Of a stretch of DNA of 43,930 nucleotides, positions 28,883 to 38,182 are shown piece by piece (the stretch's first letter is position 1; each line of letters opens with the position of its first letter). Position numbers and translations under genes: made by a program. Under the pieces are notes generated by a model. It worked only from the letters and a program-made list of their open reading frames with translations, ran no database searches and was not told the DNA's origin. The stretch is from Escherichia phage phiHAO78-1, in the sequence record PP197160.1; one strand, given 5' to 3'.

Positions 28883-29089
28883 TTAGCGTTTTGAAGCGAC
28901 GGCGGCGGCAACGAACACCAGGATTATAGCCAGCGCAGCAGGGCCCCAGAACGGAAGCAGCACCCACAGCCAAGACCAGGCGATAACTCCGGTCAGTTTC
29001 AAGGTTACAAAGATAAGGCCCAGTACAGAACAGATTCCCATTTTCATAATCACCTCTATGTTATTTAGAACGGCCAACCCAACGACCAT
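28883..29089 (-). CDS. Small membrane protein (68 aa, two predicted TM helices)
   Basis: Strongly hydrophobic sequence (ICSVLGLIFVTLKL..., LWVLLPFWGPAALAIILVFVAAAV). Confidence 0.45.
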   Translation of the reverse strand: MVVGLAVLNNIEVIMKMGICSVLGLIFVTLKLTGVIAWSWLWVLLPFWGPAALAIILVFVAAAVASKR

Positions 29090-30095
29090 CGTCGTCTAGC
29101 AGCATCGGAATTAACTGTGGGCAACCCTCTGTGATTACCAGTACACCCAGGATTGGTTTCTTACGGGCTAACCTACCGTACGCAAAGGCCAGACTCTTAC
29201 GGTCAATCAAGCAGCCTGCGTATGCACCAAAATACAACGCTGTAGAAGACGCTGCATATTGCACTTCGAATCTGCCATGCTCATGCCCCAAGACCAAAGA
29301 AGTGCGCTCATGCGATGCGTTAAGCATAAAGTCACCAGATACCTGATGTTGGAAGCGGACCGGTCCGAGCGGTGTATTGAGCACCCAAGCATCGGCCCAC
29401 GACCATGCCGGAGCACCGTGCTCAGGGAACAAGATATCGCGGTACTTCTTAATAAATTGCACCGGCAAACCGTGAGCCTTGGCGCGACGATACACCAGAC
29501 TCCCGTGATTGGAATCGCATACGAGAAGATTCGGGAAGAGTTCATGCAGCTGCTCCAGTACTAACTTAGCCTTCTCCAGTTCCACCCCGGCACTATCCAG
29601 GTTCGGGTCCGAGTCGTGGAAACTAATTGCGTGCCCATCCGTCTCGTCGCCCACCTGCACCACCATGTCCGGACAGTACTCGTCCCGCACGCTTCGCAAG
29701 AAGTCCATAGCATCTACGTGAGTATAAGGAGCATGCAAATCACCCACAACAAGAATACGATGACAGGTACTAGGAACGCTAGTATTTCCAATGTCGTCGG
29801 TTGGGCTCGGCTGAATAAGCTTACGAGCTTCCTGTAAACCACGGTTAGCATTCGCTTTACTCCCGTTGTTATCCATGAAGATGCTACGCCAGTAGCGCAC
29901 AAGCTGGCGGGACACCACACACTCTGCAGTACCGAGGGTGCTGTAGTATTCAGCAGTCTCCTTGTACTGCGGTATCTCCCCATAAGCCAATAGTACGTTA
30001 TATGTTTTAGCGGCAGTAGAGTTATCCAAGTACTGGCCCAGGATTGCCTGGTGCTGCTCTTTGGTGAATAGTTTGATTAGGCTAACACGTGCCAT
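29061..30095 (-). CDS. Calcineurin-like metallophosphoesterase
   Basis: Motifs ILVVGDLHAPY, QVGDETDGH, DSNHG and GHEH match the metallophosphoesterase signature pattern. Confidence 0.65.
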   Translation of the reverse strand: MARVSLIKLFTKEQHQAILGQYLDNSTAAKTYNVLLAYGEIPQYKETAEYYSTLGTAECVVSRQLVRYWRSIFMDNNGSKANANRGLQEARKLIQPSPTDDIGNTSVPSTCHRILVVGDLHAPYTHVDAMDFLRSVRDEYCPDMVVQVGDETDGHAISFHDSDPNLDSAGVELEKAKLVLEQLHELFPNLLVCDSNHGSLVYRRAKAHGLPVQFIKKYRDILFPEHGAPAWSWADAWVLNTPLGPVRFQHQVSGDFMLNASHERTSLVLGHEHGRFEVQYAASSTALYFGAYAGCLIDRKSLAFAYGRLARKKPILGVLVITEGCPQLIPMLLDDDGRWVGRSK

Positions 30096-30097
30096 TA

Positions 30098-30490
30098 TTA
30101 GGCCCCCTTAATAATTTGACTGATGCGAGATTGTACTACACCGTATTTCGCAGCAAGCGCGTACTGATTAGCGTATTTAGAACGAGGAACATACTCCCGG
30201 CGAATCTGCTCTACAATAGACTTGGAAATCTTACGAGCTTCGCGGCCTCTATCTACCTTATCTTGCACGTTGTCTGCCCTGCTGCCCACCAGAAGATGCT
30301 CGGGATTAATACAACGGGGATTGTCACATGAGTGTCTAATCACCTGTCCGTCTATATCCGCATAGGTTATACCGTGGTGGCGGACGTAAACCACTCGATG
30401 ATATAGGCGCATCTTCCCGTCACGTTTAACTAACGCATATCCTTCTTTTAGAAGGCTTCGGCTTTTGCCGTGGTCTATACATTCTGACAC
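30098..30490 (-). CDS. HNH endonuclease (paralog family A)
   Basis: CIDHG ... HRVVY ... HSCDNPRCINPEHL plus C-terminal HTH-like NQYALAAKYGVVQSRIS; paralogous to 34603..35040 and 36703..37170. Confidence 0.8.
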   Translation of the reverse strand: MSECIDHGKSRSLLKEGYALVKRDGKMRLYHRVVYVRHHGITYADIDGQVIRHSCDNPRCINPEHLLVGSRADNVQDKVDRGREARKISKSIVEQIRREYVPRSKYANQYALAAKYGVVQSRISQIIKGA

Positions 30491-30652
30491 TACATGTCTC
30501 TCTTATGTTGTTCCTACTCATATCACATTAATTCTCGGTAAATCACAGAATCAAGCCAAAGTCAACAAATAATTTTATTTAATTATCTGCTTGACCTCAG
30601 CTAATTCTCATGTTACCCTAACCCCCTACACCACCCAAGGATCCACCTATCA

Positions 30653-36028: not shown

Positions 36029-36234
36029 TACTTAATTTCCAAGGTTGTGGCATATGCAAAATTAAGTTGCCGGAGAATCATAGATTCACTCAACAGCACC
36101 CGTGCGCCGTCGTGCAGGTAGAATATATCCCCGCCCGGGGACTTTATGGCCCAGTAGCTTTTTGTGCCCCAGGTAAAAGGGATAGCTTTACGGATAAAAG
36201 TAGGTCTGGTGCTGTAGTCTATGATACTAGGCAT
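36028..36234 (-). CDS. Hypothetical small protein
   Basis: Likely starts at the internal Met (MPSIIDY...); the longer ORF-track form to 36324 overlaps the upstream gene by about 98 bp. Confidence 0.35.
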   Translation of the reverse strand: MPSIIDYSTRPTFIRKAIPFTWGTKSYWAIKSPGGDIFYLHDGARVLLSESMILRQLNFAYATTLEIK

Positions 36235-36706
36235 TTGCTTTCTCCTTACGTTTGATTTCCATAGCCATGCGTCGCAGGTCGTGCGCCAACTGTAGGGCTG
36301 AATCGGGGTCGATGTTAATCCCAATCTCCAACTCTGCCCGGGCGCTGTTCTTTTTAGGAACTATTCCTATATAGAGTAGGTTCTCATCAGTCCAACTGTA
36401 TCTTTTTAGGACCAGCCGCTGGTCGTTGCCCGGGTCGCGTTTAGAGTTCATATAGGCTACGCCATCCGGAACAGGTGGCAGCTCGTCGTCCGGCTCTTGG
36501 TATAGCTCGAAGTATTCAGAGCACCAGGGGACGGGGTCTCCGTAACGCTGCACACCGTCAAGCTGCAGCCAGTAACCACCAGCACTAGTGCGTGTTATAG
36601 TGTAATACTTCCTAACACCTTGAGTATATCGCAATAGTTCCATAATCCCGGTACATGCCTCGCCTACTACAACCTTATCACCAACTTTAAACTTATACAT
36701 AATCAA
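36227..36706 (-). CDS. Hypothetical protein (159 aa)
   Basis: ORF on the coding strand with small overlaps to both neighbours. Confidence 0.5.
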   Translation of the reverse strand: MIMYKFKVGDKVVVGEACTGIMELLRYTQGVRKYYTITRTSAGGYWLQLDGVQRYGDPVPWCSEYFELYQEPDDELPPVPDGVAYMNSKRDPGNDQRLVLKRYSWTDENLLYIGIVPKKNSARAELEIGINIDPDSALQLAHDLRRMAMEIKRKEKANA

Positions 36707-37170
36707 CCCTCCACAATATTATCGTATCCACCCCAGTTCCACCCATACAATACTCTGTATACAGTGGATGAGTGTACCCCAAACCGCCGCGCCAGTGCGG
36801 GTGCACTGAATTCTCGGTCGTGTTTTCTGTAGTGCTTACGTATAAACGCTACGTCCGCATCTTTTAATACGCTTCTACCGTGCTCCTCTCCCTTGGCCTG
36901 CCGCCCCTTTGATACTTTGTCACTCTGGTTAGTCTTGTGCGTGCCAAGCTCCAGGTGGTCAGGATTTATGCAGCGGGGATTGTCGCAGGTATGCATAACC
37001 ACCTTGTCTGCTAGGTCTGATAGGCTCAGCCCCAACTTATCTGCCATAACTTTTCGATGGATTCTATACACTAAACGGGAACCATCTGGATATCTCTTGG
37101 TAGTTATACCATAACCGTCCCTGTCCCCTGCATATCCGTGGTCTATACACTCACTTTGTAATTTCGTCAT
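36703..37170 (-). CDS. HNH endonuclease (paralog family A)
   Basis: CIDHG ... YRIHRKVM ... HTCDNPRCINPDHL plus C-terminal HTH-like segment; shares a near-identical ~17-nt DNA stretch (cagcggggattgtc...) with the other two paralogs. Confidence 0.8.
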   Translation of the reverse strand: MTKLQSECIDHGYAGDRDGYGITTKRYPDGSRLVYRIHRKVMADKLGLSLSDLADKVVMHTCDNPRCINPDHLELGTHKTNQSDKVSKGRQAKGEEHGRSVLKDADVAFIRKHYRKHDREFSAPALARRFGVHSSTVYRVLYGWNWGGYDNIVEG

Positions 37171-38182
37171 AACCTCCCCAGTCCTGTATTACTCTAGTAC
37201 CTAGGTCTATCAGCTCATCACGAAATCCGTAATCAGAATACACCATGATGTACTCTGCCGCCCTTGCTGGGTTGTCCAACACCCAGCTAATCAGTTGCTG
37301 CTTAGAAAGTTGTGACACCTCCTTAAACGCTGCTAGTAAATGCGGATCCTCCGTAGGGGGAACATCCAATGGCATCGTTAGGGGATGCGTATAGGCAGAT
37401 AACCACGCATCCGGTTCCACTACTTTAGGATCACGCTCAATCGGTAGGTGCTTGAATGTACCCGGACTAAGTACGTGCTTCAGTACGCTGCCAAGAATGC
37501 TAAGGTCCAGCACCTCATCCGGAGTATGCTCGTGCATGTACCCTACACCTACGTTAGTGCATTCTGGGATAATCTGCATGAACTCAGCGGAGTCCGTGTA
37601 TACCCCTTTCTGTAAGTGCGCATCCGTTCGTCCTAATCGGGCCGCCAGCTCCTTTGCAAACGTATCAGAACAGCAACGTTGGTATCGTTGATGCGTAATG
37701 ATCCCATCTCCACGGCGGTCAAAGCTAATCATTGCCTTGACCCCAGTCCAGAAGCCAGTGTCGTCCTTGGCGGATGCACTGCTGCCTTCACAGCCTACCT
37801 CTTCATCCACGAAGAAGCAGTAACGTCCATGTACTCCCCGCTTAATCATCTCCAGCATCAAGTAGATACCAGCACCACAGTCTGCACCTAGACAATCCGC
37901 CACCTGTGGATTCCGCAGGAACATTACACCCTTGTTAGTGATTGCAATGTCTGGCGCAGCACTACCAGGCCGGGCCACTGTGTCGAGGTGTGATGTAAAC
38001 GCTACATCACTCTGTTCAGAGTAGCCGATAAGCACAAAGTAGTTACCGTGAGCATCCCTAACGTAGTGCTCTGCACCAGCAAGGGCGCTACTAAGTAGCG
38101 GCTCGAACCATTTGGTACTGCCCCAGCTAGGTCGGTGCGTTGTTAGTATCTTTGTCAGTAGTTTAAGGTCAACACCATACAT
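37151..38182 (-). CDS. Putative metallopeptidase-like protein (M20/M28-type signatures)
   Basis: SHLDTV, GADCGAGIY and DEEVGCEGS resemble metal-ligand motifs of M20/M28 zinc peptidases; motif-level only. Confidence 0.4.
   Translation of the reverse strand: MYGVDLKLLTKILTTHRPSWGSTKWFEPLLSSALAGAEHYVRDAHGNYFVLIGYSEQSDVAFTSHLDTVARPGSAAPDIAITNKGVMFLRNPQVADCLGADCGAGIYLMLEMIKRGVHGRYCFFVDEEVGCEGSSASAKDDTGFWTGVKAMISFDRRGDGIITHQRYQRCCSDTFAKELAARLGRTDAHLQKGVYTDSAEFMQIIPECTNVGVGYMHEHTPDEVLDLSILGSVLKHVLSPGTFKHLPIERDPKVVEPDAWLSAYTHPLTMPLDVPPTEDPHLLAAFKEVSQLSKQQLISWVLDNPARAAEYIMVYSDYGFRDELIDLGTRVIQDWGGYDEITK

Follow-up and report, generated by a model that had tools for sequence, protein, structure and literature searches.

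The 43,930-nucleotide sequence of Escherichia phage phiHAO78-1 (PP197160.1; hereafter the window) carries two genes that an original prediction, made from the letters alone, had assigned to a calcineurin-like metallophosphoesterase (MPE) and a putative zinc peptidase, both placed outside the canonical T7 replication set and described as embedded in the replication module. The minus strand is coding throughout and carries every long open reading frame (ORF). The 9.1-kb region from the MPE gene to the peptidase gene matched 276 phage records, with the best DNA identities to Escherichia phage AV102 (94%), Minorna (92%) and Klebsiella phage KPV811 (90%), and Minorna is classified in Autographiviridae, Slopekvirinae, Drulisvirus. 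Together, these matches, the taxonomy of Minorna and the minus-strand ORFs identify the record, as judged by sequence, as a Drulisvirus (KP34-like Autographiviridae) podophage genome written reverse-complemented. Transcription would run from the early genes through the genes for a 664-aa protein, the peptidase, an HNH protein, a 159-aa ORF product and the primase, followed by HNH, helicase, DNA polymerase, HNH, MPE and small membrane protein genes, and then by those for a 289-aa protein, an exonuclease, an HNH protein, endonuclease VII, a nucleotide kinase and RNA polymerase (Table 1). The MPE gene stands downstream of the DNA polymerase gene among DNA-metabolism genes. The peptidase gene is not inside the replication set; it closes the early region, a short way ahead of the primase gene.

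Table 1. Features of the phiHAO78-1 window (positions in the window; aa, amino acids; pLDDT, predicted local distance difference test; AF2, AlphaFold2).
Feature	Positions	Strand	Remarks
MPE gene, 344 aa	29061..30095	(-)	phrog_221; equivalent of Minorna gp036, homologue of SP6 gp23
MPE N-terminal helical domain, aa 1-95	29811..30095	(-)	AF2 pLDDT ~85-94 over aa 10-80
MPE linker, aa 96-110	29766..29810	(-)	near-invariant QPSPTDDIGxTxVP; pLDDT ~37
MPE catalytic domain, aa 111-344	29064..29765	(-)	D119/H121, D150, N196/H197, H250, H271/H273
Clan-MH di-zinc peptidase/amidohydrolase gene, 343 aa	37151..38182	(-)	phrog_4191; equivalent of KP34p11, Minorna gp048
Peptidase catalytic domain, aa 1-250	37433..38182	(-)	pLDDT above 90 over most of the domain; holds the invariant columns
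Peptidase C-terminal helical extension, aa 251-343	37154..37432	(-)	lineage-specific; pLDDT 40-70
Large early protein, 664 aa	38182..40176	(-)	phrog_6980; directly upstream of peptidase
HNH homing-endonuclease gene	25530..25997	(-)	
HNH homing-endonuclease gene	30098..30490	(-)	
HNH homing-endonuclease gene	34603..35040	(-)	
HNH homing-endonuclease gene	36703..37170	(-)	
159-aa ORF	36227..36706	(-)	aligns only to positions 205-357 of the 455-position profile phrog_4317
DUF3310 (T7 gp1.7-type) nucleotide kinase	24752..25129	(-)	next to endonuclease VII
289-aa conserved protein	27962..28831	(-)	phrog_862; between MPE and exonuclease genes
68-aa hydrophobic ORF	28883..29089	(-)	phrog_1374; begins inside the 3' end of the MPE gene (29-nt overlap)

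The MPE ORF is preceded by a Shine-Dalgarno-like AAGGGGG. Each motif quoted in the original prediction was found in its translation (GDLHA at residue 118, GDETDGH at 149, SNHG at 195 and GHEH at 270), and with the fourth-motif histidine at 250 all five calcineurin-like motifs are present (D119-x-H121, G149-D150-x-x-D153, N196-H197, H250 and G270-H271-x-H273). A family alignment of 60 sequences, reaching down to ~32% identity, revealed D150, N196, H197, H250, H271 and H273 to be invariant, and D119 and H121 to be kept in 57 of the 60; no position of the five motifs falls below 95% conservation. The Pfam Metallophos profile (PF00149) barely reached the phiHAO78-1 protein (21.6 bits against a cutoff of 21.5, over motifs I-II only); it matched 35 of the 60 relatives, with a best E-value of 1.3e-11. 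Far stronger was the match to the PHROG family phrog_221, 'metallo-phosphoesterase' (E 7e-111), and the beta-sandwich MPE fold was recognized. The protein is accordingly best described, from its motifs, profile match and family conservation, as a calcineurin-like MPE whose predicted active site is intact. Ahead of the catalytic domain, the N-terminal helical domain contains a conserved AAxxYN...VSRQLVRYWR segment, split in the alignment by a lineage-variable insert. The linker that follows is a possible docking motif with predicted disorder, and P96, S97, D100, D101, G103, T105 and P108 are invariant in it.

To place the MPE among known phosphoesterases, its family profile was aligned by hhalign with single reference sequences. 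Bxb1 gp47 was aligned at 96.8% (E 2e-10) over 199 columns, enough to take in the whole domain with the part beyond motif V. All other references fell well below: lambda phosphatase (66%, E 5.5e-5, 74 columns), E. coli SbcD (15%, E 0.0019, 43 columns, motifs I-II only), T5 A1 (13%, E 0.0022, 85 columns), ApaH (5%, E 0.0071, 90 columns), LpxH (2%, E 0.02, 89 columns) and YfcE (0.6%, E 0.11, 127 columns). Full-length homology to the Bxb1 gp47/L5 gp54 type therefore stands well above that to the other MPE classes, and Bxb1 gp47 (L5 gp54, A10ZJ24 gp48) is the nearest relative with a reported function among those tested. Bxb1 gp47 is reported to be needed for phage DNA replication, and such a requirement, like exonuclease or DNase activity, is known for mycobacteriophage proteins only (PMC11795197, PMC12287305); A10ZJ24 gp48 is an Mn-dependent phosphodiesterase that breaks down DNA both in vitro and inside cells (PMC12287305). 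Two further candidates were rejected. T5 A1 is a predicted metallophosphatase that suffices to degrade host DNA; it was discarded as a relative on its 13% alignment and serves as a functional precedent only. Assignment as an Mre11/SbcD nuclease was discarded as well: unlike Mre11/SbcD and PolD DP1, the MPE, which has ~70 aa left beyond motif V, lacks a capping domain; its alignment to SbcD is confined to motifs I-II; and the annotated genes of the matching region in relatives, Minorna included, contain no SbcC/Rad50-like partner.

The MPE family is carried mostly by phages. Searches by tblastn found the MPE in 644 phage records, among them SP6 (gp23), K1E-type phages and a Pelagibacter podophage, and its family forms ~1,600 clusters at 50% identity in metagenomes. 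The phiHAO78-1 protein shares 43% identity with SP6 gp23 and 73-99% with its Drulisvirus orthologues. The SP6 gene is flanked by those for endonuclease VII and a DUF3310 (T7 gp1.7-type) nucleotide kinase, and the gp47 gene of Bxb1 by polymerase and primase genes. Several relatives carry recognizable N-terminal modules, namely HTH_psq (3.5e-10), HNH_repeat (4.6e-13), HTH_24 (2.4e-6) and a zinc-ribbon-like segment. Some relatives are 590-640 aa long and contain LAGLIDADG or Hint (intein-like) insertions (P0291, P0246; BFVD A0A514CY74, A0A8S5P6X8).

The peptidase ORF is likewise preceded by a Shine-Dalgarno-like sequence, CAGGAGG. Its assignment, at first motif-level only, is now borne out by profile, fold and ligand evidence. 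Pfam M28 (PF04389) passed narrowly (21.4 bits against a cutoff of 21.3), M20 stayed below threshold (16.5 against 24.6), and several homologues carry precomputed PF04389 matches. The phrog_4191 'peptidase' profile gave an E-value of 9e-142, and the family profile matched PepT (3gb0) at 6.8e-15. H65, D67, D101, E127, E128, D155 and H219 are invariant in 37/37 homologues, down to 33% identity, and in the alignment with PepT they fall on its HxD, GADD, EE and H motifs. From knowledge of the family, we take H65, D101 (bridging), E128, D155 and H219 to be the di-zinc ligands and E127 the general base. The metal-ligand residues, which the original prediction had singled out for checking, are thus present and conserved in the alignments of both proteins, to an extent that chance would by no means produce.

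The predicted model of the peptidase (pLDDT 82, above 90 over most of the catalytic domain) has the alpha/beta aminopeptidase fold, and Foldseek matched it to M42, M20 and M28 structures with E-values of 1e-11 to 1e-7 (TET1 9e-12, PepT 7e-11, S. griseus aminopeptidase 9e-8, DapE catalytic domain 7e-8). The M20 lid is not present, as only 64 residues separate D155 from H219 and the alignment jumps from residue 158 to 302 of PepT, with PepT residues ~177-300 left out; nor is the M42 PDZ-like insertion, the H65-D101 spacing being only 36 residues. The enzyme therefore has an M28-like single-domain architecture with an M20/M42-like sequence, and its TM-scores of ~0.5 to M42 structures reflect the missing domain. 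The C-terminal extension had no Pfam match and is missing in distant homologues, whose matches span only 63-75% of the query. On visual inspection, the N-terminus does not resemble a signal peptide. The peptidase occurs in 403 phage records; besides Vibrio and Pectobacterium podophages, these cover Bacillus phages and Thermus phage P23-45.

Directly upstream of the peptidase gene, the stop codon of the 664-aa ORF overlaps the peptidase start as TAATG, indicating that the two are translationally coupled. The conserved C-terminal half of the 664-aa protein contains a CxxC...CxxC zinc ribbon and invariant SCM and PYxD motifs. Phage-record counts for this protein and the peptidase are equal in Klebsiella (232/232), Vibrio (42/42), Escherichia (9/9) and Shigella (4/4) phages. 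Homologues of the 664-aa protein precede the peptidase in Vibrio Maculvirus (35% identity, 2e-41) and Pectobacterium Peat1 (2e-10), so that an adjacent, homologous partner is found in three genera, and in a 73-kb uncultured contig the peptidase gene overlaps in the same manner with that of a weakly related protein upstream (24.7 bits with the hidden Markov model). A physical partnership of the two proteins is suggested by this conservation. Searches with the 664-aa protein of Pfam, NCBIfam and PDB (the last as single sequence and as profile) gave no match apart from a sub-threshold Pfam zinc ribbon, and a protein search returned only close relatives, all called 'hypothetical'. Peptidase homologues in two large-phage contigs (L007, L009) had no conserved neighbours. 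The 664-aa protein evolves faster than the peptidase, at ~57% identity where the latter holds ~79%. As many of its homologues measure 562-586 aa, translation may in truth begin further downstream than annotated; a 114-aa ORF (39929..40273) overlaps the 5' end of the gene.

Among the remaining genes, the four HNH homing-endonuclease genes split up the DNA-metabolism module. Those at 34603 and 36703 are insertions relative to Minorna (blastn gaps 34599-35037 and 36737-37167), and these two explain most of the unaligned 15-20% of the region. The 159-aa ORF, directly downstream of an inserted HNH gene, is kept short in Minorna too (gp047). The nucleotide kinase covers only positions 56-173 of the profile phrog_2585. 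At the equivalent place Minorna (L001 51..545) encodes a 164-aa HAD-motif (DLDGT) protein that is annotated 'polynucleotide kinase' and has no counterpart in phiHAO78-1. The 289-aa protein ends in a Pro/Ala/Thr/Val-rich repeat tail of ~50 residues (APAAPTAPAAP...), and the 68-aa ORF probably encodes a small membrane protein. NCBIfam, searched with five proteins, returned nothing except a spurious low-complexity match.

Neither gene is new. To our knowledge T7 itself has no MPE or peptidase gene of this kind, as the original prediction implied, but the two are not unusual insertions: they are conserved, annotated components of Drulisvirus and related genera, and the MPE is also found in SP6, K1E and further Autographiviridae. 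GenBank records of related phages already name the genes 'metallo-phosphoesterase' or 'phosphoesterase' and 'peptidase'. In the KP34-like genus, the 'putative peptidase' KP34p11 and its upstream neighbour KP34p10 are core genes (PMC4411677), and Phimunavirus (PhiM1-like) phages have a conserved early-region peptidase (IPR007484) and a conserved calcineurin-like phosphoesterase ORF, the latter at a position unlike that in KP34-like phages (PMC6115819). Both are already known, ordinary conserved accessory genes of Drulisvirus, and the finding is an ordinary one because such genes are standard and already annotated in this phage group. What the analysis adds is modest: the MPE is linked specifically to the gp47 family, and the peptidase is strictly paired with the large early protein.

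We favour, at a probability of roughly 0.55, a joint reading in which the MPE would be a replication-supporting DNA phosphodiesterase and the peptidase an active exopeptidase or amidohydrolase working with the upstream protein. A DNA role is proposed for the MPE because of its homology to gp47, its DNA-metabolism neighbours and the nucleic-acid-binding fusions in its relatives; that it is a DNA-directed dimetal phosphodiesterase aiding replication or host-DNA recycling we put at roughly even odds. Under this proposal it would act on DNA as an Mn2+/dimetal-dependent phosphodiesterase, be it an exo- or endonuclease or an end-processing enzyme. The N-terminal helical domain and conserved linker would bring it to nucleic acid or the replisome, and its activity would help phage DNA to be replicated or host DNA to be recycled for that purpose. 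The peptidase would be a catalytically active cytoplasmic exopeptidase or N-acyl-amino-acid amidohydrolase, made late in the early phase and acting together with the 664-aa protein. Of the roles suggested in the original prediction, DNA end processing or metabolism has thus gained positive evidence, for the MPE only; no evidence was found for cell-wall-precursor metabolism or immune-signal degradation.

Several observations weigh against this proposal. The gp47 link comes from comparing a profile with a single sequence only, and Bxb1 gp47 itself lacks phosphoesterase activity (PMC12287305). Solved structures searched with the MPE (single sequence and two family profiles) gave nothing meaningful, and the literature yielded no biochemical data for any Autographiviridae member of either the MPE or the peptidase family. 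The N-terminal domain of the MPE is suggested to be nucleic-acid-binding and helix-turn-helix (HTH)-like; the DNA-binding role is advanced with reserve because Pfam, HTH families included, gave no match to the domain, and the HTH label is equally provisional because hhalign did not match the domain to the HTH modules that other family members carry. For the peptidase, nothing in the present data narrows the substrate. Its partnership with the 664-aa protein is built on synteny and equal record counts only, and the peptidases of Bacillus and Thermus phages have no detectable partner.

The MPE could instead counter host defences by hydrolysing nucleotide immune signals (cyclic di- or trinucleotides, cCMP/cUMP or cADPR-type molecules), in which case it would be Acb1- or Apyc1-like in function. 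We consider this improbable: the signal-degrading phage enzymes found in our literature search use 2H or other folds, with no MPE example; the nearest tested relative, gp47, is tied to replication and nuclease activity; the N-terminal fusions in relatives are nucleic-acid binders; and in Drulisvirus, SP6 and Bxb1 alike the gene has DNA-metabolism genes around it. Improbable to about the same degree is an end-healing enzyme (3'-phosphatase or 2',3'-cyclic phosphodiesterase) resembling the MPE domain of bacterial Pnkp and mending nicked DNA or host-cut tRNAs. A polynucleotide kinase-MPE end-healing pair was considered and rejected, the neighbouring kinase being the DUF3310 protein and the Minorna 'polynucleotide kinase' the HAD protein absent here. 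A lambda phosphatase-type Ser/Thr/Tyr protein phosphatase that reprograms host phosphoproteins is very improbable, since the protein reads GDETDGH and SNHG where the PPP signature has GDxVDRG and GNHE, and lambda phosphatase aligns over 74 columns as against 199 for gp47.

For the peptidase, the rival is a DapE/ArgE-type metabolic amidohydrolase that diverts host amino-acid or peptidoglycan-precursor pools and acts alone, its adjacency to the 664-aa gene being mere synteny. Such a role would agree with the labels 'succinyl-diaminopimelate desuccinylase' or 'acetylornithine deacetylase' that some databases give to homologues, with the DapE catalytic domain among the Foldseek matches and with the retention of the peptidase by the partnerless Bacillus and Thermus phages. 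DapE and ArgE are, however, M20 enzymes with a dimerisation/lid domain, which the phiHAO78-1 peptidase lacks, and the equal record counts and overlapping stop and start codons favour coupled expression; we regard this alternative as unlikely. Only a little less doubtful is a bolder version of the preferred proposal. In it, the peptidase and the fast-evolving zinc-ribbon protein (560-710 aa) would form a two-protein early module of Drulisvirus, Maculvirus, Phimunavirus and, weakly, the 73-kb presumed-phage contig, perhaps remodelling a host target or disarming a defence by proteolysis or deacylation, and the MPE would be the Autographiviridae counterpart of gp47, the two jointly representing a widespread replication accessory nuclease.

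If the proposal for the MPE is correct, a nuclease linked to replication would be common to mycobacteriophages, to SP6- and K1-5-type phages and to several hundred podophages of Klebsiella, E. coli and Pectobacterium that are candidates for therapy, and a gene usually annotated by domain name only would gain a testable function. If the pairing is correct, phages under development for therapy would possess a conserved early module. Neither point alters current understanding, and both are leads for routine biochemistry.

Compared with Bxb1 gp47, the phiHAO78-1 MPE is only ~22% identical, activity having been measured for the mycobacteriophage proteins alone, and its N-terminal helical domain and conserved linker are additions relative to gp47. 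Bxb1 gp47 is also the recombination directionality factor of a serine integrase, a role with no obvious counterpart in Autographiviridae, which are lytic phages. No integrase is annotated in the 16.7-kb Minorna stretch examined (phiHAO78-1 itself was not scanned for one). Closer to hand, the phrog_221 proteins of SP6 (gp23), Drulisvirus and Phimunavirus have an N-terminal RQLxRYW segment in common with the phiHAO78-1 MPE, which differs from its SP6 gp23/phrog_221 relatives by an insert of ~20 aa in the N-terminal domain. In K1E the N-terminal and catalytic domains are two separate proteins, and the position of the gene varies by genus. The peptidase shares with the other members of clan MH (the M28 aminopeptidases of Vibrio and Streptomyces, PepT and DapE of M20, and TET of M42) the same alpha/beta fold and H-D-E(E)-D-H di-zinc site; like the M28 enzymes it is single-domain, to which it adds a helical C-terminal tail of ~95 aa.

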